The notes beneath the pieces were generated by a model. That model made no database searches. It was not told where the DNA came from and saw only the letters and a list, made by a program, of their open reading frames with translations. Source: Candidatus Falkowbacteria bacterium (lineage in GTDB: Bacteria > Patescibacteriota > Patescibacteriia > Patescibacteriales > UBA12465). Taken from it: a stretch of 64,000 nt of DNA. The stretch is taken from assembly GCA_037137655.1 (NCBI GenBank), contig JBAXJX010000001.1, forward strand, positions 33,188 through 97,187, in the 5' to 3' direction. The position numbers were made by a program, and so were the translations under genes. Below are positions 1 to 64,000 of this stretch, in pieces (the stretch's first letter is position 1; each line of letters starts with the position of its first letter).

Positions 1-1122
1 ACAGTTGTTTGGGACGGCACCAATAGTAATACTGGTTTACATATTTACCTTAATAATGTTAATCAAGATTCGATAACAACTAGGGGTGGTGTTGGAACGT
101 TTACGGGAACAGTCCAAAATTCTAATAATGCTTATATTGGCGCCACTGTTTGGGATTACGGCACACCTTACGATGTTTTAAGTGGCCATATTAGTGACTT
201 TCATATTTATAACAGGGTTTTAAGTGATAGTGAAATCTCTACTCTTTATGTGCCGACACCACAATACACCTGGTCCACAAACAACGACTATTCAATTACA
301 ATTACCCCAACCCAAAATGGTGTTTATAAATATTATGACGCGGCTTACAATGTGATCTATACTGGTTTAAATTATAATGGATCAAACGGTCCGGCTTATT
401 ATATGTCTGCTTGGAGTGGTGTAGCGGAGAGCGCTATGATTGCAATACCGACGCCGATGACTAATAATCTCTTGGCGCATTATCCGTTTACTGCCAATGC
501 TAACGATACTAGTGGTAACGGCCATGACGGGACGATAGCGGGCTCTGTGAGCTATTCTGGAAGTGGAATCAACACCGCTAACGGTGCTGTAAATATTGGT
601 AATAGTTCAGCCTTTTATTTATCGTCTGGTTTAGGTTTTACATTTTCTACCTGGGTAAATGTTAATCAGTATAATGCCAATAGCTATGTGGGAGGTTGTC
701 TTATAACAAAAGGAAATGCAATTAATGGCTCCACTCAAGGTGAGTATTCTCTATATATGGATACTTATTATGGTCTGCAAATAAGAATTGGATATTATAA
801 TTCGATTTGGGCCTCAATCCCATACACTTCAGTTCCGCTAGGGACAAAAACTCTGGTAACCGTTACTTGGGATGGTAAAAGTAGTAATACCGGGTTACAT
901 ATTTATATTAATGGAGTTATCCAAGACTCAATAACTACTCGAGGAAGCTCTAATAATTTCACCTTAATCTCTCCTGGTGGCAGCAATGTTTACATTGGCG
1001 CTAGTACTTGGGACTACGGCACACCTTACGATTACCTAAATAGCAACATCAGTGATTTTCGTATTTACAACCGAGCTTTGAATAATGTGGAGGTTCAATA
1101 TTTATATACATCCACACAATAA
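1..1122 (+). CDS. LamG/concanavalin-like lectin-fold repeat protein, 5'-truncated by the window edge
   Basis: Frame 1 is open from nt 1 and runs into tracked ORF 250..1122, whose GTG is probably internal. nt 1-249 encode ..VVWDGTNSNTGLHIYLNNVNQDSITTRGG..YIGATVWDYGTPYDVLSGHISDFHIYNRVLS. This is a paralogous copy of the C-terminal ..VTWDGKSSNTGLHIYINGVIQDSITTRGS..YIGASTWDYGTPYDYLNSNISDFRIYNRALN. The D-F-x-IYNRxL ending is typical of LamG-type jelly-roll domains. Confidence 0.7.
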   Translation, partial: TVVWDGTNSNTGLHIYLNNVNQDSITTRGGVGTFTGTVQNSNNAYIGATVWDYGTPYDVLSGHISDFHIYNRVLSDSEISTLYVPTPQYTWSTNNDYSITITPTQNGVYKYYDAAYNVIYTGLNYNGSNGPAYYMSAWSGVAESAMIAIPTPMTNNLLAHYPFTANANDTSGNGHDGTIAGSVSYSGSGINTANGAVNIGNSSAFYLSSGLGFTFSTWVNVNQYNANSYVGGCLITKGNAINGSTQGEYSLYMDTYYGLQIRIGYYNSIWASIPYTSVPLGTKTLVTVTWDGKSSNTGLHIYINGVIQDSITTRGSSNNFTLISPGGSNVYIGASTWDYGTPYDYLNSNISDFRIYNRALNNVEVQYLYTSTQ

Positions 1123-1576: not shown

Positions 1577-4619
<3,043 letters not shown>

Positions 4620-4715: not shown

Positions 4716-4831
4716 TTCTGGTGGTTCGAGCGAAGGGGATACACCTGATCCCATCCCGAACTCAGAAGTTAAGACCTTCAGCGTCGATGATACTTGGACA
4801 ATAGTCCTGGGAAAGTAGACCACCGCCAGAA
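4716..4831 (+). rRNA. rrf: 5S ribosomal RNA
   Basis: TTCTGGTGGTT..CCCATCCCGAACTCAGAAGTTAAG..GGGAAAGTAGACCACCGCCAGAAC matches the 5S consensus. It is flanked by a processing stem, GACATCATTG / CAATGATGT. Confidence 0.93.
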
Positions 4832-15388: not shown

Positions 15389-15395
15389 TTAAATA

Positions 15396-17963: not shown

Positions 17964-17974
17964 AATAATTGTGT

Positions 17975-20110: not shown

Positions 20111-20719
20111 ATGTCTATGATTACCAGAAGACAAAAAGAAACATACGATTATATCGTTTCATATCTTAATAAAAATGGCTATTCTCCGTCATATTCAGAG
20201 ATAGCTTATCATTTTCATCTTTCATCGGTAGCTACCGTCTATGATAGTGTTATTCAATTAGTAAAAAAGGGGCTTTTAAGAAAAATAAAAGGCACTCCAA
20301 ACGGTTTAGAGCCAATTAAAAGAACAATGGCTGAAATTTTTAATATTCCCCTTGTTGGCACAATTACTTGTGGACAACCCATTGAGGCCATAGAAATACC
20401 GGACACGACTATTGAAATTGCCAAAGACCGACGTTTTCAAGAGGGCGAACTCTATGCCCTTAAAGCTAAAGGCAACTCCATGATTGGGGACGGTATATTT
20501 GACGGTGATTTTCTCATAATCAAAAAACAAGAGTGGGCTGATGACGGCGATACCGCCGTGGCGATCATCGACGACAACGAGGCCACGTTAAAAAAATATT
20601 ACAAAGAAAAGGGACAAATAAGACTGCAACCGGCCAACCCCGCTTTTAATCCGATATATCGCAAGGAAGTTGAAATTAGAGGAATTGTTGTAAAAGTTAT
20701 TAGGGATTTAAAAAAATAA
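20111..20719 (+). CDS. lexA: LexA-family repressor (winged-helix DNA-binding domain plus S24 self-cleaving peptidase)
   Basis: N-terminal RRQKETYDYIVSYLNKNGYSPSYSEIAYHFHLSSVATVYDSVIQLVKKGLLRK is LexA_DNA_bind-like. Catalytic Ser in GNSM and Lys in EATLKKY. The cleavage-site region reads VGTITCGQP, so Cys-Gly replaces the canonical Ala-Gly. Confidence 0.85.
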   Translation: MSMITRRQKETYDYIVSYLNKNGYSPSYSEIAYHFHLSSVATVYDSVIQLVKKGLLRKIKGTPNGLEPIKRTMAEIFNIPLVGTITCGQPIEAIEIPDTTIEIAKDRRFQEGELYALKAKGNSMIGDGIFDGDFLIIKKQEWADDGDTAVAIIDDNEATLKKYYKEKGQIRLQPANPAFNPIYRKEVEIRGIVVKVIRDLKK

Positions 20720-20743
20720 CAACTTAATATATTTTACAAAGTT

Positions 20744-20779
20744 ATACGCCCGCAACCCTAAGGGGCGAGCGTATTTTTA
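20744..20779 (+). terminator. GC-rich hairpin plus T-run after lexA
   Basis: ATACGCCCGC..GCGAGCGTAT (one mismatch) followed by TTTTTAATTT. Confidence 0.55.
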
Positions 20780-20790
20780 ATTTCAAAAGT

Positions 20791-21591
20791 ATGAAAGCCA
20801 CTCTCAAAGATTTAAAAATTAAAATGACCAAGTTGGCCAAGGACTTTTCCGAGGAGGAAAATATCTTTCAAAGAACCTTGGCGATTTTTAAATTTATTGA
20901 GGTGTTGCAGAAAAACAAGGACACTAAAAAAGCCCTTGATTCCCTGCTAAGTAAAACCAGTAATGAAATGGATTTCCAGGAATTATCCGATGAGGATGAT
21001 TTGCTTTGCGAAAAGGCTGGCATTGATTGCGATTTCTGGGTTTGCTATGGAGCCTTGGATAAAGTCCACACTTTGATTTTAAAATTTAAAGAAACCGAGG
21101 ACAAACGATATGCCAATAAAGCCATTAAAATGGTTTCGGCCTCGTATTATCCGGAGATATACGGCATTTGTTTTAAAATGGTTGCCGGGTGTTTACTCGA
21201 AAAAATGGAAACCGATTATCTTTTGACCAACAAAAAAGATAAGGAAGAAAAAACTTGCTTTAACAGCCAAAAAAGTATTTTATACGTCAAAGGCTTTAAA
21301 ATCATGATAGCCAAACAGGATAAAGAAACCAATGCCCACAAAATCCTTAAATACATATTCAAGGATAATAAGGACAATTTAAAAGACAATTTTTTCTTCT
21401 CGGAAATAGCCGATGATGTTTTTGAGGACTTGGAATATAAGGACGATAAAGGCAGTTGGAAGAAATATAATCGAACTTGCGAAGTGATAAATGAGAAAGT
21501 TTTAAAAGGAACCAAAAACCTTGTGGATAAGTTTTTAATATACAACAGCGGTCAAAAAGGGTTTTTGAAAATAAATCCTGAATACATCTAA
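20791..21591 (+). CDS. Prophage hypothetical protein
   Basis: 266-aa ORF with prophage-type codon usage. No family recognised. Confidence 0.55.
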   Translation: MKATLKDLKIKMTKLAKDFSEEENIFQRTLAIFKFIEVLQKNKDTKKALDSLLSKTSNEMDFQELSDEDDLLCEKAGIDCDFWVCYGALDKVHTLILKFKETEDKRYANKAIKMVSASYYPEIYGICFKMVAGCLLEKMETDYLLTNKKDKEEKTCFNSQKSILYVKGFKIMIAKQDKETNAHKILKYIFKDNKDNLKDNFFFSEIADDVFEDLEYKDDKGSWKKYNRTCEVINEKVLKGTKNLVDKFLIYNSGQKGFLKINPEYI

Positions 21592-21765
21592 TTTACAGGG
21601 AAAAACAATCGAAACTACCCACAAATTTACCCCGGAACTTTTGGGAACTCGACTTATATACAATAGCCTCATAGTAATATGGGGCTTTTTATTTAGCCCC
21701 AAAAAGGCTATCGCCAACTAAAGGTCGGGGCGAAATTAGTAATTAATAAATTTAAATTCAAAATT

Positions 21766-22038
21766 ATGTTTTACCTGAAAGGTATTATTAAGGACGAAAA
21801 AACTGAAAACTTCGTCCGCAAAGACGGCACCGAGGGACAAAAGAGGATTTTGTTCGTGGAGCCGGAGGGTAGTATTTACCCGATTAGCGTAGACGTGCCC
21901 ATTGGCAAAGCCTACGGCAAAAAAGGAGATAAGGTTGAGGTTAAAGTGAACGTCGCCTCATATTATTTCCAAGACAAACAAAGACGTCGTGGTTTCCTTT
22001 CGGTCTATGTTCCGAAAGAAGAAACCGAAAGCAAATAA
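21766..22038 (+). CDS. Candidate ssDNA-binding protein (gpV-like by size and position)
   Basis: 90 aa, rich in predicted beta-strand, with a basic patch (KQRRRGF). It lies directly upstream of the small coat-protein ORFs, as gene V does in Ff phages. No sequence identity is claimed. Confidence 0.4.
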   Translation: MFYLKGIIKDEKTENFVRKDGTEGQKRILFVEPEGSIYPISVDVPIGKAYGKKGDKVEVKVNVASYYFQDKQRRRGFLSVYVPKEETESK

Positions 22039-22055
22039 TCTAAAAGTTAAATTCT

Positions 22056-22220
22056 ATGGATATTATCACATCGACCACCACCGCCACAACGACAATTTAT
22101 CGGCTAACCGATACCGGAATGGATATGATTAATTTCTTTATCCAATTCCAAACTTTAGCGGTCGCACTTTCGGCGGGTCTGATTGTATTCATTGCGGTGA
22201 TTTTAATTTTTAAAAACTAA
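22056..22220 (+). CDS. Small membrane protein (minor coat pVII/pIX-like), 54 aa
   Basis: Hand-translated; it falls below the ORF-track cutoff. MDIITSTTTATTTIYRLTDTGMDMINFFIQFQTLAVALSAGLIVFIAVILIFKN has one C-terminal TM helix. Its stop overlaps the next start (TAATG). Confidence 0.5.
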   Translation: MDIITSTTTATTTIYRLTDTGMDMINFFIQFQTLAVALSAGLIVFIAVILIFKN

Positions 22221-22336
22221 TGAATATGGCGAATGTAATTATCAACTTGTTTGGCGGTATAGGCTTGGCATTAATTTTGCCTCTTGCCGTTCTGACTTTA
22301 GTTTCAATTATATTCAAAATATTTAGGGCAAAATAA
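22220..22336 (+). CDS. Small membrane protein (minor coat-like), 38 aa
   Basis: Hand-translated: MNMANVIINLFGGIGLALILPLAVLTLVSIIFKIFRAK. A single TM helix with a basic tail, translationally coupled to the previous ORF. Confidence 0.5.
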   Translation: MNMANVIINLFGGIGLALILPLAVLTLVSIIFKIFRAK

Positions 22337-22343
22337 CAAAGAT

Positions 22344-22490
22344 ATGTGTTCACAAAATATCATTAACAACCTGTCGTGCTATCTGGATAATTTCGGTCTG
22401 ATACTTAGGCCGATAACGGACGGCTTGACCATGGGGATTATTTTGGGAACGGTGGTCGGCTTATTCTTGTTATTCATTAGAAAAAATTAA
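22344..22490 (+). CDS. Small membrane protein, 48 aa
   Basis: Hand-translated: MCSQNIINNLSCYLDNFGLILRPITDGLTMGIILGTVVGLFLLFIRKN. C-terminal TM helix plus a basic end. Confidence 0.45.
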   Translation: MCSQNIINNLSCYLDNFGLILRPITDGLTMGIILGTVVGLFLLFIRKN

Positions 22491-22510
22491 AAAGTTAAAA
22501 GCACACACGT

Positions 22511-22789
22511 ATGTTTAACAAAATCAAGAGTTTCGCAAAAGCTAATGCCACCAAAATTTCCGCCATGTCTTTGGCGGTTGTCGGTAGCATGGTTGCCTTT
22601 GGCAATAAAGCTTTCGCCGCTGTCGATGCGGATGTAGCTTCAACTTCCCAAACCGTGGTTACCACGTTGAAAGAAAACGTCACCGGCATTATCACCGCCA
22701 ATATCGCTAATATTGTGATTGTTGGTGTGATCGTTTTCGGTGTCATGTTCGTTTGGAAGTTAAGCAAGAAAATCATGTCCGGTCGCTAG
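22511..22789 (+). CDS. Inovirus major coat protein (pVIII-like)
   Basis: Signal peptide ending ..GNKAFA|AVDADVAS. The mature protein of about 57 aa has the classic layout: an acidic N-terminus (D, D, E), a hydrophobic core (ITANIANIVIVGVIVFGVMFVW) and a basic C-terminus (KLSKKIMSGR). Confidence 0.8.
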   Translation: MFNKIKSFAKANATKISAMSLAVVGSMVAFGNKAFAAVDADVASTSQTVVTTLKENVTGIITANIANIVIVGVIVFGVMFVWKLSKKIMSGR

Positions 22790-22795
22790 TCTAGG

Positions 22796-22834
22796 GAGCG
22801 AGGGGTTGGCTCAAAAGGCTGACCCCTTTCGCTC
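22796..22834 (+). terminator. Strong hairpin immediately after the major coat gene
   Basis: GAGCGAGGGGT (22796-22806) pairs with ACCCCTTTCGCTC (22822-34), with a TT bulge. There is no clear T-run. Its position parallels the terminator after gene VIII in Ff phages. Confidence 0.45.
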
Positions 22835-22862
22835 TAACTTAAATAAAATTATCACTACACAT

Positions 22863-23054
22863 ATGACGTTAAATCTCAAAATGAGCGAAACCACTTACTT
22901 AATAAATTTTTTAAGTGAACGCAAAAAACATTTGGATGAAATGAAATTTATCGACGGATTAGGAGCTTATGAAATTAGAGAATTGAAAATGATAAACGAA
23001 GTTATCGAGAAACTTAAAAAAATGGGCTACTACATTATCATTTTTAAAGAATGA
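22863..23054 (+). CDS. Prophage hypothetical protein (63 aa)
   Basis: The tracked ORF 22806..23054 begins inside the hairpin, so ATG 22863 (MTLNLKMSETTY..) is the more likely start. Its stop overlaps the next start (ATGA). Confidence 0.45.
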   Translation: MTLNLKMSETTYLINFLSERKKHLDEMKFIDGLGAYEIRELKMINEVIEKLKKMGYYIIIFKE

Positions 23055-24838
23055 AAATTATGAAAAACTTTCGGATAAAAAACTTAATATTTCCGGTTAT
23101 CGCTTTGGCCATAATGTTTTTGGGCAAAACAGCCATGGCTTCGACAATCGATTTTAACGGTTTTCGCATTTCCGACGAACAGCATTACAGCGAGGGCGTA
23201 ACCAGTTTTACCGTTTCCATAACCGTGCCGACTGACTTTACCGCCAACTCCGCTTTGGTCTGTGCTTATTCTACTGCTTGGGAAAATTCCAATTATAATT
23301 ATCTCCGCTACGACGGGAATAATATGACGGAAATTTCCAGCGTTCAAAACGGTTCGCAAGTCGGTAAGGTTCGTTTGTTTTATCTTTATAATCCACGACG
23401 AGGCACTTATCTTCTGACCGGTTCGCAACCGCAAAACTGGTATCATGTCCAATGTCGCACGATAGAAAATGTTAACACGCATGTTGTTCCAACGGTCATC
23501 ACTCAAGGTCGCACTTCAAGTGCCGGCAGTCCGTGGTATCACTATTATTCCAGTTCACAGTTCATGCTTAGCTCGCTTTTAATCAGCAACTACGCTTCGC
23601 AGAATACATCGTCCCATTCTCCCGCCTCGCATTTTCTTTACGCCAATCCACGCATGGGCTATGCGGAAATATCAATGCAAGCGGTCAACGCCAATAATCC
23701 ATATTCATATAAATATACTTTCTCCGGAACAAATTACGGTCTAACCAGTCAAATCGTGGAGTTTAAGAAAAAGCCGGATGTTGAAATTACCAATTATACC
23801 CAAGGGCAAACGGTTAACAATCTGCTCGACACCACTTTAACGATAGAGGGTTCCTGTAAAACTAATGGAACAAGTCAATTAACGCTCCAAAATTCATACG
23901 TTCTACCGCAATCTCAACCGACTTGCGATTGTGTTAATAATACTTTTTCTTGTCCTTATAATTTCGGCGGTTATGACAATGTCAGCGTTTGCGTTATCGA
24001 CAAAAACGACACCACGGCTTATGACTGTAAAAATTTGGTTTTGATTAAAGCTCAAATGCAAACCAATTACGGCACTAATCCATATTTCACCGCCATGCCT
24101 TGGTCTTGCGATTTACTCGGTTGTCGTTTTCCTTTGGCCTCAAACGCTTCGTGGAGCTTTGAATATAGTTATGATCAAGACATAACGCCTTATTCACAAT
24201 ACAACGCTCCATTTATTGTCAGGCCGATGAATGTTCCGCTCACCTCCACCTCGACAAAATTATATGTGGCGGAAATAACCAATCCTTATGTTGTCTGTAA
24301 TAATTGCACTTCTTCTTATCAAGTTCTTCAAACGCTTTCGAACACCACGTTAAATAATTTAACGGCCACCAGTTCCGGCTTTATGTTCGGGGGTTTCGAT
24401 ATTTCCACCTCAACTAAATATTTCTTAGTGTCCTTAAAATCAGCAACCAGTTCAACTATATACGAAAAGCAATATATCACGCTTTCATATTCCGCCGCCG
24501 AAAGGCCAAGCGGACAACCGGATTTCATTTGGTTTCAAAACACTAAAGACAAATTAAAAGGTAAATTGATATTCGCTCAAGTGTTCGCTTTTTACGACGC
24601 TCTCTCGGCTTTTCTCAATGCCAGTGGCACCACCGGCAACCCGCTTGTTTTCACCATGAAAAGTATGTCAGCTAATAATCAATTTAATCTCGATATTCCG
24701 ATATTTGATTTTAGTAATTCCGTCGTCGTTAATTTCGCTCAAAGAATGAGGTTTCTGTTTATCGCCGGCATTTGGATTTCTTTCGGATTCTATTTGTGGA
24801 ATATGTTCACTAAGCGATTATTTAGAGAAGACGGTTAA
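23051..24838 (+). CDS. Candidate adsorption/minor coat protein (pIII-like)
   Basis: 595 aa. Signal peptide (..FLGKTAMA|ST), Cys-rich central part, C-terminal membrane anchor FLFIAGIWISFGFYLWNMF followed by basic residues. It is the largest ORF and sits directly after the major coat gene, as gene III does. Confidence 0.5.
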   Translation: MKIMKNFRIKNLIFPVIALAIMFLGKTAMASTIDFNGFRISDEQHYSEGVTSFTVSITVPTDFTANSALVCAYSTAWENSNYNYLRYDGNNMTEISSVQNGSQVGKVRLFYLYNPRRGTYLLTGSQPQNWYHVQCRTIENVNTHVVPTVITQGRTSSAGSPWYHYYSSSQFMLSSLLISNYASQNTSSHSPASHFLYANPRMGYAEISMQAVNANNPYSYKYTFSGTNYGLTSQIVEFKKKPDVEITNYTQGQTVNNLLDTTLTIEGSCKTNGTSQLTLQNSYVLPQSQPTCDCVNNTFSCPYNFGGYDNVSVCVIDKNDTTAYDCKNLVLIKAQMQTNYGTNPYFTAMPWSCDLLGCRFPLASNASWSFEYSYDQDITPYSQYNAPFIVRPMNVPLTSTSTKLYVAEITNPYVVCNNCTSSYQVLQTLSNTTLNNLTATSSGFMFGGFDISTSTKYFLVSLKSATSSTIYEKQYITLSYSAAERPSGQPDFIWFQNTKDKLKGKLIFAQVFAFYDALSAFLNASGTTGNPLVFTMKSMSANNQFNLDIPIFDFSNSVVVNFAQRMRFLFIAGIWISFGFYLWNMFTKRLFREDG

Positions 24839-24849
24839 TCGTTAAAATT

Positions 24850-25263
24850 ATGAAAAACAAAAATCACAACAGAATAATTATTGTGGCGGTCGTGGCCATT
24901 TTAGTCGTTAGCTTATTCAGCGTTCAACCCGCCAAAGCAGGGTTCTTTACGGACACATTGGACGGCATTAAGGCTTTGTTTGATATGTTCAATCCGGCCA
25001 ACCTCGTTCATTACATAGCCAACCTATTCGACACAATAGCCACATTTTTTGTGGGCTTCTTACCTAATAATCAATATTCAACCTATTCGGCAGAATTTAC
25101 CACCTCAATTAATACCGTCGTTCCTTATGTGGTCAGTTTCGACAAGATATTTCCGGTCTTCACTTTCTTCGGCGTGCTATCAATGGTCATATTTATAGAA
25201 ATGATTTATTTCTCTTTTAGATTCGTCAATTACATTGCCGGATATATCAGAGGCGGAAAATAA
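24850..25263 (+). CDS. Membrane protein (pVI-like by position)
   Basis: 137 aa with an N-terminal TM helix and two C-terminal TM helices, located between the pIII-like and Zot-like genes. Confidence 0.4.
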   Translation: MKNKNHNRIIIVAVVAILVVSLFSVQPAKAGFFTDTLDGIKALFDMFNPANLVHYIANLFDTIATFFVGFLPNNQYSTYSAEFTTSINTVVPYVVSFDKIFPVFTFFGVLSMVIFIEMIYFSFRFVNYIAGYIRGGK

Positions 25264-25264
25264 T

Positions 25265-25903
25265 ATGATTAACATTATCACCGGAAAACCCGGCACAGGC
25301 AAAACTTATTATCTCGCTAAACTGGCTCGCAAATTTATTTTAAGCGGATTGGATATTTATTCCAACTTCTTCATTGATAGAAAAAAGATAATTTCCGATT
25401 ACGAAAAATCTTTCAAGTTTAAACTGGCGACATTGTTCCATAAATATTTTTTGGAAGAAAAATATAAACCAGATTACGGACAGCTTATATTTTGGGAAAA
25501 ACTGGACGAGTTTATCGACATCCGAGGAGGCGAGGTTTTAATCGACGAGTGCCAGATATATTTTAATTCCCGCAAATGGAAAGATTTGCCGGAGCGACTG
25601 CAATACAAATTTCAGCAACACCGTAAACATATTAAGCGGGACAGCCAAGGCAAGGTTGTCGGTTTAAATATTTGGGGTGCCGTTCAAAACGTCAAACGTA
25701 TAGATACCGTCGTTAGAGAGCTAGTTAATAATGTTTTTATTATCAAGAAAATATTTAAGTTGTTTATTATCCGCCAATACGACATCGAGGAAATTGATAA
25801 GGAAAGAAAGTATTGCTATTCCACAAATTTTTTTACTTTTAGCCAAAAGGTGGCTTCATCATACGACACTTTTCAAGAGATAGCCGGATTCAGCCGGCAT
25901 TAA
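25265..25903 (+). CDS. Zot/pI-family phage assembly ATPase (N-terminal P-loop domain only)
   Basis: Start taken at ATG 25265 (MINIITGKPGTGKTYY..). Walker A GKPGTGKT, Walker B VLIDECQ, then FQQHRKH..WGAVQNVKRIDTVVRELV, matching the Zot-family HRH..Q..id..vR pattern. 212 aa with no C-terminal TM segment. Confidence 0.75.
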   Translation: MINIITGKPGTGKTYYLAKLARKFILSGLDIYSNFFIDRKKIISDYEKSFKFKLATLFHKYFLEEKYKPDYGQLIFWEKLDEFIDIRGGEVLIDECQIYFNSRKWKDLPERLQYKFQQHRKHIKRDSQGKVVGLNIWGAVQNVKRIDTVVRELVNNVFIIKKIFKLFIIRQYDIEEIDKERKYCYSTNFFTFSQKVASSYDTFQEIAGFSRH

Positions 25904-25954
25904 ATTGCTATACAAAAAAAGGAGCCAACCCGTTAGGATCAGCTCCTTGATTTG

Positions 25955-26251
25955 TTAAGCCGTTTTTTGTTCGACTTGTAGCTCGTAAAAGAGATTAATG
26001 CTTCTGGGCGTTTTCTCTATCACTTTGCCGGTTTCTTTGTCTTTCTTCTCGACGATAACGAAAGACTTAATGGCTTTCTCGCCCTTTTTGACGATATAAC
26101 CGTTCTTGAGCCAGCCTTTAAACGTCAGGCAGTTCTCTTTCGGATTATACTTTTCTGCCTCGGTTTCGCCCCAACGTTGAGCAATCTGCTTTTTGACGAG
26201 ATTCAAAGTGCTTTCCGAACCCGTCCAGTTTGATTTGACCGTAATTGTCAT
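25955..26251 (-). CDS. Small protein with an ArdC-N-like (DUF1738-type) ssDNA-binding motif; the only minus-strand gene of the prophage
   Basis: ..LTFKGWLKNGYIVKKGEKAIKSFVIV..INLFYELQVE resembles the TFxQW..G..VxKGEK...VFN..Q motif of ArdC N-terminal domains (from memory). It is transcribed divergently from the rep side, the position of regulators such as rstR in CTXphi. Confidence 0.4.
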   Translation of the reverse strand: MTITVKSNWTGSESTLNLVKKQIAQRWGETEAEKYNPKENCLTFKGWLKNGYIVKKGEKAIKSFVIVEKKDKETGKVIEKTPRSINLFYELQVEQKTA

Positions 26252-26458
26252 ATTTTTAATGTTGACGACTGATTAATAAATAGCCCTGATAACGTCGTCT
26301 TAAATTATCTATCGGCCACGAGGTGCCAAAGCGACTGATAGCTTGCGACTGTCATAGGTGGAGGCTGTAAGCACTACCTTGATAGGCGAAAAGCCGTCGC
26401 TAAAATGAGAGGCCACAGATAGACAATTTGCGTTCGTTTGTAATTTGGTTTTATTTTG

Positions 26459-26536
26459 ACCGGCCAATAGATTTGTTTTTTTATTTTTCGGCGAGTTTTG
26501 CCCACTCGCCGAAAAATAAAAACAAGCTTGGCCGGT
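26459..26536 (+). promoter_or_regulatory. Extended 78-nt hairpin in the main prophage intergenic region (candidate ori or packaging signal)
   Basis: The outer stem ACCGGCCAA (26459-67) pairs with TTGGCCGGT (26528-36). The inner stem of about 22 bp pairs TTGTTTTT(TT)ATTTTTCGGCGAGT with ACTCGCCGAAAAATAAAAACAA around the loop TTTGCCC. A third GGCCGGT copy lies at 26559-65. Confidence 0.5.
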
Positions 26537-26629
26537 AAATGAGATTTTAGACGAGATAGGCCGGTATGTAATTATTTAACTTGACCATACGCACACACCG
26601 GGAGATTTTTAGAAAATATCAATAAATAT

Positions 26630-26872
26630 ATGATTTACAAAGATATCAAAAAAGAATTCGATTATATCCTTTGGCTAAGAGAAAGAATCAAAAAATTAAG
26701 ATTCGGTATTAGCCATAGAGTAAAAGTTGACAGTTCGACTGATTTCGAAATGTTAACCAGAAAATTAAAAGATTATGAGCAAGAATATGAGTTGTTGGTT
26801 TACGACTTATATCTGCTCCTAAAAGATTATGGCTTATCAGGAAAAATTAATAATTACCCATACTCGAGTTGA
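26630..26872 (+). CDS. Prophage hypothetical protein (80 aa)
   Basis: ORF overlapping the rep start by 44 nt. No family recognised. Confidence 0.4.
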   Translation: MIYKDIKKEFDYILWLRERIKKLRFGISHRVKVDSSTDFEMLTRKLKDYEQEYELLVYDLYLLLKDYGLSGKINNYPYSS

Positions 26873-27560
26873 GCTTTTTAAATATGAGAGCTTGGTTAAA
26901 AGTGGAGTAAAACGAAAAAAGAAAAGAATCGTCAAACGTCGCACTAAAGAACAAGTTATCCAACAAATTGAAAGCAACAAAATCAGCCAATTCGATATGG
27001 AAATTATGCGTCATTTTTCGCTTAAGCGAACTAAAGACCGGATAATGCGATTGATTAACAACAATGAGGACATGCAGACTTTTATCACACTAACTTTTAA
27101 AGAAAATATTACCGATTTATTCGAGGCCAACGAAATATTTAAAAAATTTATCAAAAGACTAAAATGGAAATTTCCAAAATTAAAATATCTGGCCGTTCCG
27201 GAATTTCAAAAGCGAGGAGCGGTTCATTATCATCTATTGATTAACATTGATTACGTAGAGAATGCTAAATTGGCCGAAATTTGGGGACAAGGCTTTGTCA
27301 TGATCAACAAAGTTCGGCACATAAACAATTTAGGGTTATACGTTTCAAAATACATCTGCAAAGATTTATTCGATATTCGATATTTCGGAATGAGAAAAAT
27401 TCTTTGTTCAAAAAACTTGGAGCAACCAATAATTTTAACCGGCTTTAAAAATATAATTAACTTTTTTAATCCGACTAAATTAAAATTATTGTTCGAAAGC
27501 AGTTATCGGTCTGATTGGTTGGGAAAAGTAAATTATTCATTATTTTCATTAACCGGCTAA
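26829..27560 (+). CDS. Rolling-circle replication initiator (HUH endonuclease, phage/plasmid Rep)
   Basis: Motif 1 FITLTF, motif 2 GAVHYHLLIN (HUH), motif 3 GLYVSKYICK (catalytic Tyr). 243 aa. Confidence 0.8.
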   Translation: MAYQEKLIITHTRVELFKYESLVKSGVKRKKKRIVKRRTKEQVIQQIESNKISQFDMEIMRHFSLKRTKDRIMRLINNNEDMQTFITLTFKENITDLFEANEIFKKFIKRLKWKFPKLKYLAVPEFQKRGAVHYHLLINIDYVENAKLAEIWGQGFVMINKVRHINNLGLYVSKYICKDLFDIRYFGMRKILCSKNLEQPIILTGFKNIINFFNPTKLKLLFESSYRSDWLGKVNYSLFSLTG

Positions 27561-27562
27561 AT

Positions 27563-27736
27563 ATGGTTAACAAGGCATTATTAAAAGAATTTCAAATAAT
27601 ACTCAAAGAGGAATTTAGCCTTGAATTAACGCCGGCTCAAACCTCTAAATTAGGCAATGGGATTGTCGGTTATTTCGATGTCTTAAATAGAGTCAATAAA
27701 GCCATAAAATCCGAAAGACTTGAAAAAATTAAATAG
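27563..27736 (+). CDS. Prophage hypothetical protein (57 aa)
   Basis: ATG 27563 lies 2 nt after the rep stop (MVNKALLKEFQ..). The tracked ORF 27515.. starts inside rep. Confidence 0.4.
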   Translation: MVNKALLKEFQIILKEEFSLELTPAQTSKLGNGIVGYFDVLNRVNKAIKSERLEKIK

Positions 27737-27752
27737 TTTGATACAATACTAT

Positions 27753-27862
27753 TGCACACCAATCAAATATTAAGCACCCAAGGCTTTTTTTATACTTGTC
27801 CCCTAAAAGGGGGCGGTTTCTGACTGACAAGTATTGCCTTTGGTGATATTGGTTGGTGTGCA
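27753..27862 (+). promoter_or_regulatory. Nested imperfect inverted repeat (about 110 nt) upstream of the recombinase gene
   Basis: Outer arms TGCACACCAATCAAATATTAAGCACCCAAGGC (27753-84) and GCCTTTGGTGATATTGGTTGGTGTGCA (27836-62). Inner arms ATACTTGTC (27792-800) and GACAAGTAT (27826-34). Central mini-hairpin CCCCTAAAAGGGG. Confidence 0.5.
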
Positions 27863-27898
27863 CAGAGCCGCTCCCTTTTAGTTACTAAAAAAACGTCT

Positions 27899-52379: not shown

Positions 52380-52403
52380 TTATCAATTGATCGATATAAA
52401 AAA

Positions 52404-52432
52404 AAGAATCTCAGAAATGAGATTCTTTTTTT
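52404..52432 (+). terminator. Intrinsic terminator
   Basis: AAGAATCTC-AGAAAT-GAGATTCTT followed by TTTTT. A near-copy lies at 56229-56256. Confidence 0.75.
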
Positions 52433-52500
52433 ATTGTGATGAATTACATATTTTGTTATAATAAAATATATAAATTATTTTATAATTATCTTCTAATATT

Positions 52501-53850
52501 ATGTTCCACAAAAAGAAAAAGGCGTTTACGCTCATCGAACTTCTTGTTGTTATTGCCATTATCGGCATCTTGGCAACTATTGCTGTTATTGCTTTGCAAA
52601 ATGCTCGCGCCAAAGCCCGTGACGCTCGTCGTGTAGCTGACGTCAAACAAATTCAAACTGCTCTCGAATTATTTTTTAATGACGCTCAGCGTTATCCGAC
52701 ATCGACTGAATTTTCTTCTGGTCAATCATTAGTTTATTTTAATGGCGTAAATACAACTACTTACATGGCTGTAATTCCAACTCCACCATCGCCGGCGGAT
52801 GGTAATTGTAATAATGATAGTAATAGTGCTTATTCTTATTCGACAACACCTAATGGTTCCTCCTATTCTATTTCTTATTGTGTTGGTGGTCCAGTTGGAG
52901 CTCTGGCATCTGGCGCACACTGCGCAACACCGGCTGGAATTAGTGACGGAAATAGTTGCTCGGGTGGCAGTAGCACTGATACCGGAAATCATATTGCGCT
53001 TAGTGATTCTAGCTGTGGCTCTAGTTGTTCTGTTGGTCAGGGTTGCTATAGTGGTAATTGTTTTTATCCAGTGTATACGGCTAGTGATTTACAAAATATT
53101 AACATTAACACTTATAATTGTTCTATTCGCTATATTCAAATGGCTAATGTTGATTTGAATGTGGCCCCATACAATACGGGGTTAGGATTTTCACCAGTCG
53201 ATTTTTGTGGTTATTTTAATGGTAATGGATACAAAATCTCAAATCTTTATATTAATAGACCATTATCTGATAATGTCGGTTTATTTGGACGTTTGAATGG
53301 GACGGTGACTAATGTTAGACTTGAGAATGTAGATGTAACTGGCTTCACAGAGTATACTGGGGGTCTTAAAGGCACCGGAGGTCTTGCTGGTTTTGTTTCT
53401 GATGGCAATATTTCTAATAGTTATTCGACTGGTGTTGTAACCGGTGGTTTAGCTGGTGGTCTGGTTGGTTTTTTTAACGGTTCCAATACCCTTTCTAATA
53501 GTTATTCAACTTGTACAACAACTGCTGTTGGCAATGGTAGCACTAATCAAAATATGGTTGGCGGCCTCGTTGGTTATGGTGCCAGCGGTTCCAACACCCT
53601 TTTTAATTGTTACTCAACTGGCGCCGTAATAGGTGGCGCTTATAATGGTGGCTTAGTTGGGGCTGATTGGTCGATATCATATAGTAATAGTTTTTATAAC
53701 ACAGATACTTCTGGCAAGTCAGATACAAATGCGAACTCTCAGCCAGAAACAACTGCCTGGATGAAAACTCAATCTAATTTTACTAATGCTGGTTGGGACT
53801 TTACTAATATTTGGATTATGACAGCGGGGAATTATCCGACCTTAAGATAG
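52501..53850 (+). CDS. Prepilin-type N-terminal domain protein fused to GLUG-motif repeats
   Basis: MFHKKKKA|[21 protein letters not shown].. followed by a 4-Cys pilin head. Then repeated ..GGLAG/GGLVG...SN.L.NSYSTG.. units (GLUG motif). Confidence 0.8.
52525..52683 (+). repeat. Conserved pilin N-terminal module, copy 2 of 4
   Basis: Same 53-aa module with two conservative changes. It shares a 32-nt identical run, GTTATTGCTTTGCAAAATGCTCGCGCCAAAGC, with copy 3. Confidence 0.85.
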
Positions 53851-53867
53851 TAATTAATTATAACATT

Positions 53868-56204
53868 ATGAAAAATAAAAAAGCCTTCACCTTGATTGAA
53901 CTTCTTGTCGTCATTGCCATCATTGGCATACTTGCCACGATTGCCGTTATTGCTTTGCAAAATGCTCGCGCCAAAGCGCGTGATGCGCGGCGCGTGGCTG
54001 ATGTGAAGCAAATCCAAACAGCCTTAGAACTATTTTTTAATGATGCTCAACGCTACCCAACGGCTGTTGAATTAATCCCTGGCGGCGCATTGGTGCATTC
54101 CGATGGTTATTCAACCACTACTTACATGGCGATAATTCCTACGCCACCAACTACGGTTGATGGAAATTGCTCGGCCGGAGATAATAGTGCTTATACTTAT
54201 TCACCAACATCTGACGGCGTTTCATACACGATCAAATATTGTATAGGTGGTCCAGTTGGCGGTATGGCTTCTGGTGGTCATTGTGCTTCACCGGCCGGAA
54301 TTAATACGCCGGGAGATTGCGGTTGGTCTCTAGCTTCAGGCTTTGGTCCAAATACTAATATCCCTGATCCTAATCCAACTTGTGATCCAACTCAGGCTGT
54401 CACTTTTGCCGATACTAATTCCAATGGTTATATAGATGTGCATACTTGCTGCGAGTTGCAACACATTTCTGATAATCCTTCAGCCAATTATGAATTAGTT
54501 AATAATTTGAATTGTGCTAATTCGGTAAATTGGTCACAGAGTGTTACTTATAATAGTAATAGCTATACTTATCCGGGCTTTGTAACTGTTATGGATTTCG
54601 CGGGAAATTTTAATGGTAATAATTTCACGATCAGCGGAATTAATTTTAAAGGTGGTCCAAATGGATATGCTGGTCTTTTTGCTACGGCTAATGGGTCAAA
54701 TGTATCTATTTCTAATACAAAAATGAACAACGCTGTTATTGATCATGGTTACATAGCTTCGCCAACTTACCCGGTTTTTCAATCAGCGGCCTTTTTTGTG
54801 CCACTTGATAACGGAACATTAACTGTTAGTAATGTTTCTTTAGCTAGTAGCTCTTATTCTTCTTATGGTGGTGGCGGTGGTGGTGGTTTGGTTGGTAGTA
54901 ATAATGGTGGCTTTGGTGGCCTTCATGTTAGCGGCTCTAGTGTTGACGGATTAACAGTCACGTATATTAATGGTCAAGGTTTTGGCAGTATTTCCGGACC
55001 TTTATATAATAGTGGTTCAAATATTATTAATGCTATAAGTGATTCTTATGCTAAAAATGTTAATATAACAACTAACCAGTGTGGCGGAAGTGGCGGCTTG
55101 GCTTACTCGGGTTATAGTTTATCATTGTCTAATTCTTATGTTGATGGTTTAACTTTTGACAATGGTTCTTGCAGCGGCGCTGGTGGCTTATTTTTTCAAA
55201 CTGGTTATACTAATATTTCTAATGCATATGTTAAAAATACAACTTTTGCTGTTCCGGGTAATGGCTCTGGTGGTGCCGGCTCTGGTTATGCCGGGCTTTT
55301 CCCGAATGATTCTGGTAATACGGTAATCTCCGACTCCTACGTTGATAATATTGCGATGTATCCAAAATCGGCTGGTTGTGGCGCCGGATTGGTATGTGGC
55401 CTTAGTGATGGCAGTAGTATAACTAATTCCCATGTTAGTAATTTAACGTTAACTGACGACGTTGGTAATGGTGGTTTAGCTGGTATGGTTGCTGCTATGT
55501 ACGGCAATAGTACTATTACTAATAGTTATGTGACTGATTCCAGCGTCACCGGTACCAGTGGCTCCAATAACCATTCGGCTGGTTTAGTTGGAGGTATGAC
55601 TAATAATAATCAGATTCTTAATTCTTATGTAAGCAATTCTACGGTCACTAGTTTTAGCGGGAGTATCGCAGGGCTAGTTAATAATTCCGCAGGAACGATT
55701 AGTAATTGTGCAGTTAAAGATGTCTCATTAGCCACTACTGGCACAACTGGCGCTAGCTATATTGGTGGTTTAATTTCGCTTCCAACTAGCAATACAACCC
55801 TATCTAATTCTTATTTTATTGGAACAATTTCTGGCACTTCTTATTCTTATGCTGGTGGAATTGTTGGTTATACAAATAGCACTGTTACCGCAACCAATGT
55901 TTATTCTATTCCAACCTTCAATAATGGTGGAACATATTATCATTGCTCTTTTGGCCATATCAGTGCTGTACCAAATTTGAATTATGTGGTTTATGATAAT
56001 TCGGTTTGTTCTTATACTGACACTCAAGCAGGCGTCTTTGCTCAAACTGATTCTCAAATGAGAGATGGCTCCGCTTATTCAGTTTATTCTGGTTGGAGTC
56101 TTAACAATCCATCTTGCGCTGGCGCTAATAATTCTAATCCTTGGCGTTGGAAGAGCGGAGGATATCCTTGTTTATATAATGACCCAAGTTGCACTTGTTC
56201 ATAA
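53868..56204 (+). CDS. Prepilin-type N-terminal domain protein fused to a large GLUG-like/parallel-beta-helix-like repeat region
   Basis: Start taken at ATG 53868 (MKNKKA|FTLIELL..); the tracked 53811 start overlaps the upstream gene. After the pilin head come many ..G.GGL.G......I.NSYV.. units and a Cys-rich C-terminus. Confidence 0.78.
53886..54044 (+). repeat. Conserved pilin N-terminal module, copy 3 of 4
   Basis: Same 53-aa module. It shares GCCAAAGCGCGTGATGCGCGGCG with copy 4. Confidence 0.85.
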
Positions 56205-56228
56205 AATAATAAGTTAACTTATAAAAAA

Positions 56229-56256
56229 AGAATCTCAGAAAAGAGGTTCTTTTTTG
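56229..56256 (+). terminator. Intrinsic terminator (near-copy of 52404-52432)
   Basis: AAAAAAGAATCTCAGAAAAGAGGTTCTTTTTT, compared with AAAAAAGAATCTCAGAAATGAGATTCTTTTTTT. Confidence 0.65.
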
Positions 56257-63707: not shown

Positions 63708-64000
63708 ATGTTTAAAAAAAATAAAAAAGCCTTCACCTTAATCGAACTTCTAGTAGTTATCGCCATCATCGGCATACTCGCAACTATCGCGGTTGTCGCT
63801 TTACAAAATGCTCGAGCCAAAGCGCGTGATGCGCGGCGTGTGGCTGATGTCAAACAAATGCAAACAGCGCTGGAATTATATTTTAATGATAAACAACATT
63901 ATCCAAGTGCTTCAGAATTTACGACTGGCGCAATTGTTTCCACTTCAACTCAGGGAACTACCACTTACATGGCGGTAATGCCAACTCCACCATCTCCAGC
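63708..64000 (+). CDS. Prepilin-type N-terminal domain protein, 3'-truncated by the window edge
   Basis: Not in the ORF track because it is open to the window end. ATG 63708 gives MFKKNKKA|[76 protein letters not shown]. Its closest paralogue is 29667. Confidence 0.8.
   Translation, partial: MFKKNKKAFTLIELLVVIAIIGILATIAVVALQNARAKARDARRVADVKQMQTALELYFNDKQHYPSASEFTTGAIVSTSTQGTTTYMAVMPTPPSP
63732..63890 (+). repeat. Conserved pilin N-terminal module, copy 4 of 4
   Basis: Same 53-aa module (one L-to-Y change). Confidence 0.85.

Follow-up and report, generated by a model that had tools for sequence, protein, structure and literature searches.

Organization of the P1–P2 locus

The DNA analysed belongs to a MAG of Candidatus Falkowbacteria (CPR/Patescibacteria), and the window is a stretch of 64 kb of a 965-kb contig. 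Two intact, co-oriented genes with 17 nt between them, here called P1 and P2, were examined together with their flanking elements. The initial annotation had placed adjacent genes of 449 and 778 aa here, and both open reading frames lie at the coordinates it gave. It had also called their products giant, which is an overstatement; both are large for pilins, yet not giant. The features of the locus are as follows.

52399..52431, + strand: left copy of a 33-nt palindromic hairpin, with a T-run after it
52434..52462, + strand: promoter-like site (TTGTGA, 17-nt spacer, TATAAT with an extended −10 TG), about 40 nt 5′ of the P1 start codon
52501..53850, + strand: P1, putative modular type IV pilin (pilin head and GLUG β-helix), 449 aa
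52501..52524, + strand: P1 leader peptide MFHKKKKA, predicted cleavage after Ala−1
52525..52965, + strand: P1 pilin head, residues 9–155 (AlphaFold2, Foldseek, Cys positions)
52966..53040, + strand: P1 linker, residues 156–180, Gly/Ser/Cys-rich, predicted disordered
53041..53847, + strand: P1 GLUG-type parallel β-helix with N-cap, about 4 GGLxG/NSY coils and C-cap (AGWDFTNIW...YPTLR)
53868..56204, + strand: P2, putative modular type IV pilin (P1-type head and long GLUG-like β-solenoid), 778 aa
53868..53885, + strand: P2 leader peptide MKNKKA
53886..54323, + strand: P2 pilin head, residues 7–152 (AlphaFold2, phmmer)
54324..54431, + strand: P2 linker, residues 153–188, bearing a motif of 10 residues
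54432..56018, + strand: P2 β-solenoid, residues 189–717, an HTCCELQH N-cap followed by about 10–12 coils of about 30 aa
56019..56201, + strand: P2 Cys-rich C-terminal cap with a stretch of 22 residues, low pLDDT
56223..56255, + strand: right copy of the hairpin, 94% identical to the left copy, 19 nt past the P2 stop codon

The start of P2 was set at the ATG at 53868. A mechanical TTG open reading frame from 53811 would give 797 aa; a database protein that differs from P2 by one residue likewise begins with MKNKK. The 64-kb window has only two copies of the 33-nt hairpin, with 0 expected by chance, and these form a direct repeat flanking the pair on both sides. The left copy likely terminates the upstream RRM gene, and the right copy likely terminates the P1–P2 pair. 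The promoter-like site matched at 10 of 12 positions, and such sites were not enriched relative to shuffled sequence; as a promoter of P1 it is only suggestive.

Prepilin signal and pilin head

A class III (prepilin) signal opens with a short hydrophilic leader whose last residue is Gly or Ala; about 20 hydrophobic residues follow, among them Glu at +5 (PF07963/TIGR02532). P1 and P2 have the signal KKA↓FTLIEL in common, with MFHKKKKA followed by a segment of 21 residues in P1 and MKNKKA↓FTLIEL in P2. The Pfam N_methyl model gave 36.9 bits for P1 and 36.0 bits for P2 (cut-off 21.2), and TIGR02532 gave 33.3 and 32.4, respectively (cut-off 16.3). At the DNA level the FTLIEL motif occurred four times in the window (chance expectation 0.7): in P1, in P2, at 29667–31235 (522 aa, NLG↓FTLIEL) and at 63708 (running past the window end). 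N_methyl was above threshold in all four of these open reading frames. Ala at −1 in three of the four, as the initial annotation had stated, was borne out, the frame at 29667 alone having Gly. Ala is the majority state in the family (94 of 125 members), and Gly or Ala at −1 is the accepted prepilin rule, with Ala a standard alternative (PMC10191384). Ala at −1 is thus not unusual for prepilins of this family.

Both proteins continue into a conserved head of about 150 aa with four Cys, at C103/127/141/153 in P1 and C101/125/139/151 in P2. These are invariant or at least 90% conserved among relatives, and 114 of the 115 closest relatives with a recognisable signal carry at least four head Cys. 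In the AlphaFold2 model of P1, an α1 helix (residues 8–62) was followed by β-strands between residues 77 and 148; block means of pLDDT in the head were mostly 83–96, with one block at 72. The P2 model showed a helix at 9–60 and strands at 74–146. The P1 model matched EpsG, GspG and PAK pilin with Foldseek probabilities of 0.8–0.94, and phmmer connected P2 with the PDB pilins of Geobacter (E = 8e-12), GspG and Myxococcus PilA. Both heads are predicted to have the pilin lollipop fold. The prepilin signal and pilin head first noticed as common to P1 and P2 are confirmed by N_methyl, TIGR02532, AlphaFold2 and the PDB pilin matches. Structure prediction, which had been proposed as a check, gave a long helix, a β-sheet head and then a β-helix tail in both models.

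Linkers and β-helix tails

Between head and tail lies a disordered linker of 15–35 aa. The pLDDT fell below 50 across residues 156–172 in P1 and 153–168 in P2, exactly between head and helix, which points to a modular build. The linker motif of P2 was also present in the relatives P0243, P0248, P0253 and P0256.

The P1 tail had 2674 homologues. Among the matches listed all carry PF07581, the best foreign E-value being 3.8e-40, and nearly all relatives are non-pilin GLUG proteins. A profile of the P1 family matched the PDB entries 3n6z (E = 6e-29) and IgA1 protease 6xja (E = 3e-18). Foldseek with the P1 model agreed: 3n6z was matched at E = 6.7e-6, and the E-values for 6xja and 7uvk ranged from 1e-4 to 5e-4, so the link of these motifs to the β-helix of IgA1 protease, made in the initial annotation, holds. 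By these comparisons the P1 tail is a clear GLUG-domain homologue. The Pfam Glug model itself reached 17.4 bits in P1 (E = 0.0058), below its gathering threshold of 20.5, and had no match in P2; the GLUG assignment therefore rests on homology searches and not on Pfam. Of the GLUG arrays proposed at the outset, the GG(L)xG/NSY units are present and the homology is significant, but neither protein reaches the Pfam Glug threshold.

For the P2 tail, hhalign against the GLUG family gave a probability of 99.4% for the N-cap (E = 1.3e-21) and 95% for the coils and C-terminal end (E = 3.7e-8), and phmmer linked the tail to the GLUG protein P0227 (E = 1e-7). The relative P0243, whose N-cap is of the P2 type and whose C-terminal end is of the P1 type, scored 38.8 bits with Pfam Glug; P0002, P0003 and P0248 scored 39.6, 93.3 and 20.0 bits (threshold 20.5). 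The C-terminal cap, conserved in P0239, P0240, P0242 and P0388, we read as a Cys-decorated variant of the GLUG C-cap W..W...G.YP.L. A word-indexed protein search with the P2 tail returned five matches only, and because of this the alignment behind the model was shallow and model confidence moderate (pLDDT 75). Foldseek with this model found generic right-handed β-helices only, at TM-scores of 0.2–0.3 and identities of 9–12%, in which lyases, hydrolases and adhesins were mixed. The coil region held no DNA-level tandem repeats of note, and the coils are old and diverged. Judged from its sequence, the P2 tail is probably a divergent, expanded GLUG-type helix undetected by Pfam.

Paralogues, age and variability

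Five paralogues of the head lie in the window, one more than the four first counted, and at least 19 in the genome. Besides P1 and P2 these are:

1..1122, + strand: fifth paralogue P0011, a 697-aa pilin with two LamG domains, its C-terminal 373 aa lying in the window (100% identity over 373 aa)
29667..31235, + strand: P3, a P1/P2-type head with Gly at −1, fused to 7 GloVer repeats (predicted β-propeller-type cargo; TIGR03803, E = 3.5e-66)
63708..64000, + strand: P4, a pilin–FISUMP fusion of 415 aa, truncated by the window end (PF07963 and PF09603)

The cargo found on the shared head comprises FISUMP, LamG, GloVer, DUF1566 and GLUG domains. More than 2200 relatives of the head carry varied cargo, with FISUMP in 78 of the best 120. 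Among the 115 closest relatives with a recognisable signal no cargo-free member was found, and all are at least 240 aa long in their mature form. The repertoire of diversified pilins suggested by the initial annotation is in this respect supported by the shared head, the different cargo and the number of paralogues; their adhesive role is something we infer.

Over mature residues 1–60 the paralogues differed from each other with pS of 0.56–0.82 (saturated) and pN of 0.03–0.08. The heads are 74–81% identical in DNA, and the longest exact word in common is 32 nt. From the saturated pS, the low pN and the short shared word it follows that they are old duplicates in which the α1 helix was kept constant as protein. 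The saturated synonymous sites and the limit of 32 nt on exact identity also rule out gene conversion between heads.

A second assembly was 99.986% identical to the window over 21,350 bp. It differed by three SNVs, too few for a test of hypervariability; two of the three fall in P2, in codons 74 and 80. The same locus in other species was fetched via the downstream DUF4015 gene, and the closest genomes were just 63–68% identical. Apart from DUF4015, none of the window genes compared (from the MFP at 46018 to the gene ending at 63632) was common to these genomes.

Pilus machinery

A PilT/PilU ATPase is encoded on the same 965-kb contig (TIGR01420, 404 bits; cut-off 319). PilB, PilC, PilD and PilM were not found in the 64-kb window by Pfam scans of 30 other open reading frames and in Pfam gene labels, nor anywhere in the approximately 160 kb of the genome inspected. 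In the gene surroundings of seven other paralogues PilT was the sole machinery gene found. In a relative, a T2SSE ATPase is encoded 6 kb away from a P2-like gene. The literature describes PilB, T, C, M, N, O and D as widespread in CPR, and PilB, PilC, PilD and PilM as near-universal; CPR are without an outer membrane or an outer membrane secretin (PMC6744442).

Comparison with known systems

Among the closest known systems are the modular pilins, of which Raynaud et al. (2021, PNAS) catalogued more than 1200, with examples from Falkowbacteria and Magasanikbacteria among them (PMC8179133). One of them, S. sanguinis PilB, is an adhesin by experiment (Raynaud et al. 2021), and a known modular pilin is incorporated into pili (PMC8179133). 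Like S. sanguinis PilB (pilin and vWA) and PilC (pilin and lectin), P1 and P2 consist of a pilin module with a class III signal, a linker and a foreign C-terminal domain that is found outside pilus biology. They differ in their head, which is CPR-specific, about 150 aa long, with four Cys and mostly Ala at −1, and in their cargo, a β-helix in place of vWA or lectin. The repertoire also differs, being far larger here, with at least 19 paralogues in about 1 Mb against two in S. sanguinis. IPR011493 we take to be the GLUG entry. The architecture IPR012902–IPR011493 is listed six times in Dataset S1 of Raynaud et al. (PMC8179133).

The GLUG proteins (PF07581; M26 NTD2 in 6xja and 7uvk; 3n6z, which is B. 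ovatus BACOVA_03286) share their whole domain with the P1 tail: the N-cap I.t..L..I....Y.L..DIDL...F.G.FDGNG..I.NL, the GGLVG...NSY coils and the C-cap AGWDF..W....YP.L. In P2, the N-cap and coils are alike at profile level, but the coils are about threefold more numerous and there are additional Cys. In contrast to the GLUG/M26 proteins, P1 and P2 have no peptidase domain, G5, LPXTG or the secretion-signal context of those proteins, and a pilin is fused instead. Searches with Pfam and NCBIfam for the M26 HEXXH metalloprotease domain found no peptidase family in either, and both end at the helix C-cap. In IgA1 protease NTD2, the one GLUG-type domain that has been characterised, the β-helix serves as a scaffold for gating and substrate contact rather than as an adhesin standing on its own (PMC9637739); the literature under 'GLUG' otherwise held almost nothing of use.

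Other public pilin–GLUG fusions of like architecture are P0002, P0003, P0243 and P0388/P0239, and P0129 and the Clostridiales protein P0103 are fusions on unrelated heads. P0002 (449 aa) is 47% identical to P1 over the full length, and P0388 is 44% identical to the P2 tail; besides re-assemblies of the same strain, the nearest relatives reach at most 47% to P1 and 45% to P2. The tandem partners differ, P0002 adjoining a pilin–FISUMP gene and P0388 being solitary. The modular pilin concept, the abundance of modular pilins in Falkowbacteria and the pilin–GLUG architecture are already known from the literature and public annotations.

Two further systems were considered and rejected. Autotransporter/TPS passengers (Ag43, TibA) showed generic fold likeness only; no translocator domain was found in P1 or P2, and CPR have no outer membrane. 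The 'Pam' pilus, recently described as specific to CPR (bioRxiv 10.64898/2026.03.03.709456), works by donor-strand exchange and has no relation to these pilins with class III signals.

Proposed function and alternatives

P1 and P2 are probably modular type IV pilins, in which a β-helix is displayed on the pilus as an adhesive module within a repertoire built on one shared head. The prepilin would be inserted into the membrane, where the prepilin peptidase would cut off the 6–8-aa leader after Ala−1. As the α1 helix is nearly invariant across paralogues, any of them could enter one common type IV pilus, which would be driven by the extension and retraction ATPases of the cell. The β-helix would then hang off the filament by its flexible linker, at the tip or along the shaft, and may act as a ligand-binding (adhesive) module. 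With one assembly machine and at least 19 cargo pilins, a tiny host-dependent cell could present many surface specificities.

An alternative that we regard as unlikely is surface display anchored by the pilin part without polymerisation. The signal and α1 would serve as a cleavable anchor or export tag, and the helix would be held or released in a T2SS-like manner. Every close relative of the head bears bulky cargo and none was seen without it, and the paralogues occur one or two at a time amid housekeeping genes, outside any pilus operon, as would suit such a system. The exact public match to P1 also carries the name 'type II secretion system protein [Candidatus Falkowbacteria bacterium]'. 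This NCBI product name is based on GspG (TIGR01710), with which the first approximately 60 residues of P1 and P2 (signal and α1) align. However, P1 scored 44.2 bits and P2 42.4 bits with the GspG model, far under its cut-off of 88.85, over model positions 2–63 of 134 only; their globular part is unlike that of GspG and there is no T2SS context, so a GspG major pseudopilin was rejected. The very strong purifying selection on α1, including Glu5, would be needless for a simple anchor, CPR have no outer membrane secretin (PMC6744442) and a known modular pilin does enter pili (PMC8179133).

It is similarly improbable that the pilus presents an enzyme, namely a catalytic β-helix (a polysaccharide lyase or hydrolase, or a protease accessory) that would degrade host envelope polymers on pilus contact. 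Fucoidan lyase, polygalacturonases, alginate lyases and phage tailspike depolymerases are among the best matches to the P2 fold, GLUG domains are found alongside M26 metalloproteases, and modular pilins bearing peptidases occur in the survey of Raynaud et al. (PMC8179133). The fold matches are generic, however, at the low TM-scores and identities given above. Pfam and NCBIfam detected no catalytic family in P1 or P2, and the nearest relatives with a solved structure, 3n6z and NTD2 of IgA1 protease, are β-helices without catalytic function.

Programmed variation, an antigenic or phase-variable locus with the heads as recombination handles that shuffle cargo between cassettes, is very improbable: it would fit the many paralogues whose common head ends at one boundary, the two SNVs in P2 codons and the duplicated hairpin that brackets the pair, but the heads are too diverged in DNA to be more than a poor substrate for homologous recombination and show no trace of recent conversion, the pair has neither an invertase nor a diversity-generating retroelement nor silent cassettes next to it, and the two assemblies are nearly identical over 21 kb.

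A wider and more speculative reading, which we hold to be rather doubtful, takes the four-Cys CPR head as a dedicated cargo carrier that is always joined to cargo. In Falkowbacteria, some 20 interchangeable cargo pilins spread over a 1-Mb genome would then serve a multi-tool pilus or a pilin-dependent surface-display system, their cassettes being inserted as promoter–gene–terminator units. Insertion of the pair as such a cassette would explain the duplicated 33-nt hairpin around it.

Meaning for CPR biology

CPR/Patescibacteria are tiny and thought to be host-dependent, with type IV pili thought to be their main tool to find and hold hosts. To our knowledge, all cultivated members are episymbionts. 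The value of the present analysis is incremental, a better annotation and candidates for binding studies, with no new principle. P1 and P2 add a β-helix type of cargo that is under-detected by domain databases, and the at least 19 pilins with a shared head and different cargo form a concrete candidate set of host-recognition determinants. If the reading of the head as a dedicated cargo carrier were true, the locus would offer a view of the way in which episymbiotic CPR bacteria encode their host range and of how it evolves.

The P1–P2 Gene Pair and Its Paralogues

The tandem modular pilin genes P1 and P2 were found where the initial annotation had placed two pilin ORFs. They are co-oriented, with 17 nt between the genes. 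The P1 protein is identical to one annotated in a MAG of a Candidatus Falkowbacteria bacterium, on a contig of 965,192 bp. The mechanical ORF of P2 opens at TTG 53811 (797 aa), but a public protein with one residue different from P2 likewise begins MKNKK, and therefore the start was assigned to ATG 53868. The FTLIEL-encoding DNA motif showed 4 occurrences in the window against 0.7 expected. The pilin genes of the window are as follows.

52501-53850, P1, 449 aa, FTLIEL site
ATG start at 53868, P2, 778 aa, FTLIEL site
29667-31235, P3 (pilin-GloVer), 522 aa, FTLIEL site NLG/FTLIEL
63708, P4 (pilin-FISUMP), FTLIEL site, truncated by the window end
1-1122, fifth paralogue (pilin-LamG), final 373 aa, the whole pilin being 697 aa long and containing two LamG domains

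The four paralogues counted initially correspond to the four FTLIEL sites, and the pilin-LamG gene had been missed. Residue −1 is Ala in P1, P2, and P4 and Gly in P3, the three-to-one division first noted. The description of P1 and P2 as "giant" fusion proteins was overstated.

Pilin Head

The first 68 residues of P1–P4 showed 87–94% amino-acid identity, and P1, P2, and P3, the sequences reaching that far, were alignable up to about residue 155, across four Cys. In a 35-sequence alignment of relatives these Cys were invariant or ≥90% conserved. The common prepilin signal and 4-Cys head proposed for P1 and P2 were thus confirmed. Pfam N_methyl scored 36.9 bits for P1 and 36.0 bits for P2 (cut-off 21.2), and TIGR02532 scored 33.3 and 32.4 bits, respectively (cut-off 16.3). 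Among solved pilins, the P2 sequence matched a Geobacter pilin (E 8e-12), followed by GspG, Myxococcus PilA, and PAK pilin.

In the AlphaFold2 models (mean pLDDT 87.9 for P1 and 75.2 for P2), a long alpha-1 helix, residues 8–62 in P1 and 9–60 in P2, packs against a small beta-sheet, and a beta-helix or solenoid follows in both. The head of the P1 model matched EpsG, GspG, and PAK pilin with Foldseek probabilities of 0.8–0.94. The head of P1 and P2 is therefore, as judged from alignments and predicted folds, a type IV pilin. The GspG, PilA, and ComGC equivalog models matched the N-terminal 60 residues only, with scores far under their cut-offs, so "type II secretion system protein", the product name given by NCBI, is generic. 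The pLDDT fell below 50 exactly at the junction of head and helix (residues 156–172 in P1 and 153–168 in P2), which is consistent with a flexible linker.

Beta-Helix Tails

After the head, both proteins diverge into different GLUG-type arrays, as had been proposed, with about 4 units in P1 and about 10–12 in P2. Each unit is ~30 aa long and has GG(L)xG and N-S-Y motifs. Pfam Glug scored 17.4 bits in P1, under the 20.5 cut-off, and the Pfam scan gave no Glug match in P2.

The P1 tail (residues 190–449) matched 2674 proteins, the best foreign match having an E of 3.8e-40. The listed ones carry PF07581, and some also contain the M26 IgA1 protease N-terminal region. The P1-tail family profile matched PDB 3n6z ("putative IgA1 protease", B. 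ovatus; E 6e-29) and residues 118–351 of the S. pneumoniae IgA1 protease (E 3e-18); the same entries were the top Foldseek matches of the P1 model. The suggested link of the GLUG motif to IgA1-protease beta-helices is borne out by these matches. The corresponding region of IgA1 proteases is NTD2, a beta-helix described as a "gating" domain (PMC9637739).

The P2 tail was far more isolated, with 489 matches in 1.84 billion representatives, just three of them below 1e-30, and only five matches in a word-indexed search. Its close relatives (database proteins P0239, P0388, P0243, P0248, P0253, and P0256) all showed the same pilin head, PDPNPTCDP linker, HTCCELQH cap, and coils. In profile–profile comparison, the P2-tail family matched pilin-free GLUG proteins over the N-cap (99.4% probability, E 1.3e-21) and over the coils and C-terminal end (95%, E 3.7e-8). 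P0243 bridges the two types of tail in sequence: its N-cap is of the P2 type, its C-terminal end is of the P1 type, and its Pfam Glug score (38.8 bits) is above the cut-off. The P2 model, a long beta-solenoid, matched generic right-handed beta-helices (fucoidan lyase, PfbA adhesin, Ag43, and phage tailspikes) and nothing closer, with TM-scores of 0.2–0.3. Since Pfam is weak here, it is by homology that both tails are assigned as GLUG-type beta-helices.

Pilus Machinery and Proposed Mechanism

No pilus-assembly genes were found in the 64-kb window. The initial annotation had named a genome devoid of pilus machinery as evidence against its reading; this genome is not of that kind, since a PilT/PilU-family ATPase was found (TIGR01420 404 bits, cut-off 319), the one component of the set located in the ~160 kb covered, on the 965-kb contig that carries a protein identical to P1. 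In a relative, a T2SSE ATPase lies 6 kb from a P2-like gene. PilB, T, C, M, N, O, and D are widespread and co-localised in CPR genomes, which have no PilQ secretin; an MdbA-like disulfide oxidoreductase is enriched and may fold pilins (Méheust et al. 2019, PMC6744442). This enrichment is consistent with the four-Cys head. Near the PilT gene and three pilin-FISUMP genes (locus L040:16709-19711, near 887–890 kb of the 965-kb contig), a 1000-aa protein with T4SS_pilin (PF18895) and Big_5 domains was observed, and the region may be a surface-structure neighbourhood.

We lean toward the reading, made by analogy, that P1 and P2 are pilins incorporated into a type IV pilus and displaying the beta-helix as a ligand-binding module. 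The prepilin would enter the membrane, prepilin peptidase would cut after Ala-1, and the conserved alpha-1 helix would lead to incorporation into the pilus, with the beta-helix shown on the flexible linker. This follows the experimentally supported model of the S. sanguinis modular pilin PilB (PMC8179133). The initial interpretation is in the main upheld, with the adhesive role of P1 and P2 being what we infer. That they are pilin-anchored surface proteins that do not polymerise is unlikely, and it also seems improbable that they are an enzyme presented on the pilus.

Evolution and Population Data

Over mature residues 1–60 the paralogues differed at 56–82% of synonymous sites (saturated) and at 3–8% of non-synonymous sites. 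The longest exact DNA match of P1 and P2 was 32 nt. The duplicates are therefore old, and the same two results reject recent gene conversion as the cause of the sameness of alpha-1. By these substitution patterns, the alpha-1 helix is kept constant through selection on the protein, as would be expected if every paralogue has to be compatible with a single assembly machine and a single filament core.

A second assembly (ENA ERZ4224321 NODE_674) was 99.986% identical over 21,350 bp, with three differences. One is at window position 42820 and two are in P2, at 54089 (codon 74, synonymous) and 54106 (codon 80, G80V). A distance of 18 nt separates the two P2 SNVs, both of which lie in the head's variable alpha-beta loop. 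Three SNVs between two assemblies are insufficient to claim hypervariability, and a programmed variation system at this locus is very improbable.

By synteny through the downstream DUF4015 gene, the closest genomes were 63–68% identical, and of the window genes compared, from the MFP gene at 46018 to the gene ending at 63632, they had only DUF4015 itself in common. A contig recorded as "uncultured Gammaproteobacteria bacterium" (L009, CAZXEE010000001.1, 546,729 bp) carries a DUF4015 homologue 63–69% identical to that of the window, along with pilins that have this type of head (P0066, P0091, and P0102). Its label is probably wrong, the genes being of Falkowbacteria type. Two hairpin copies, direct repeats, exactly flank the P1–P2 pair.

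52399-52431, left copy, 33-nt palindromic, terminator-like, 20 nt past the RRM gene stop
56223-56255, right copy, 94% identical to the left, 19 nt past the P2 stop

No further copies were found in the window (0 expected) or in other loci of this genome totalling ~93 kb. The hairpins could be the insertion footprint of a promoter-P1-P2 cassette beside an existing terminator.

Other Features of the Window

The window has ~36% G+C and contains ordinary housekeeping genes and one 23S/5S rRNA pair, directly after the pilin-LamG gene; no 16S rRNA was found in the window.

1596-4604, 23S rRNA, match of 3009 nt against a 2925-position model
4717-4831, 5S rRNA

A low-GC island (14486-19981, minus strand; 0.28–0.30 vs ~0.36 elsewhere) with reversed GC skew encodes a ResIII/SWI2-SNF2 helicase (855 aa), an N6_N4 DNA methylase (668 aa), and a DUF5655 protein. 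It is probably a type III-like restriction-modification system, acquired horizontally. Directly upstream of the pilin-GloVer gene, 20111-29517 resembles a mobile element, inovirus-like or other, that has integrated; type IV pili are typical receptors of filamentous phages.

20111-20719, LexA/S24-type repressor
23051-24838, unknown 595-aa ORF
25235-25903, Zot-like assembly ATPase (PF05707, E 5e-9)
26829-27560, REP_ORF2-G2P replication protein (E 2e-20)
27899-29506, large serine recombinase
29447-29517, minus strand, tRNA

Two adjacent ORFs at 33402-35542 resemble additional secreted or surface proteins: one has bacterial thrombospondin type 3 repeats (TSP3_bac, E 2e-14), the other a purple acid phosphatase N-terminal (FN3-like) domain.

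Head Family and Known Modular Pilins

More than 2200 relatives of the head were found, chiefly in Falkowbacteria and other Patescibacteria. Among the best 120, FISUMP (PF09603) was the cargo in 78 and Glug in just 3; LamG, DUF1566/Lcl_C, GloVer, F5/8, PQQ-like, and unrecognised domains were also seen. All 115 of these with a recognisable signal had a mature length of ≥240 aa, so each carries cargo, and 114 had at least four head Cys. The 965-kb contig carries fifteen of the 120; with P2, the pilin-LamG protein P0011 (the fifth paralogue of the window), and two further pilin-FISUMP genes in L040, the genome holds at least 19 head paralogues. They are dispersed among housekeeping genes, singly or as tandem pairs, and other combinations of cargo are seen in tandem pairs both here and in relatives (loci L037, L040, and L005). 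Residue −1 was Ala in 94 and Gly in 31 members of the family. As Ala is the majority state, and leader peptides terminate in Gly or Ala according to a recent review (PMC10191384), Ala at −1 is not an anomaly.

P1 and P2 belong to an already known class, the modular pilins and pilin-GLUG fusions. Public pilin-GLUG fusions such as the Clostridiales P0103 and the T2SSG-type P0129 differ in having heads unrelated to theirs. We take IPR011493 to be the GLUG entry. Modular pilins were defined with >1200 proteins and 264 architectures, including CPR members, among them an 860-residue Falkowbacteria protein, and IPR012902-IPR011493 occurs six times in Dataset S1 (Raynaud et al. 2021, PMC8179133). What is perhaps under-appreciated is that the closest relatives include no cargo-free members, and how large a repertoire is built on one carrier head.
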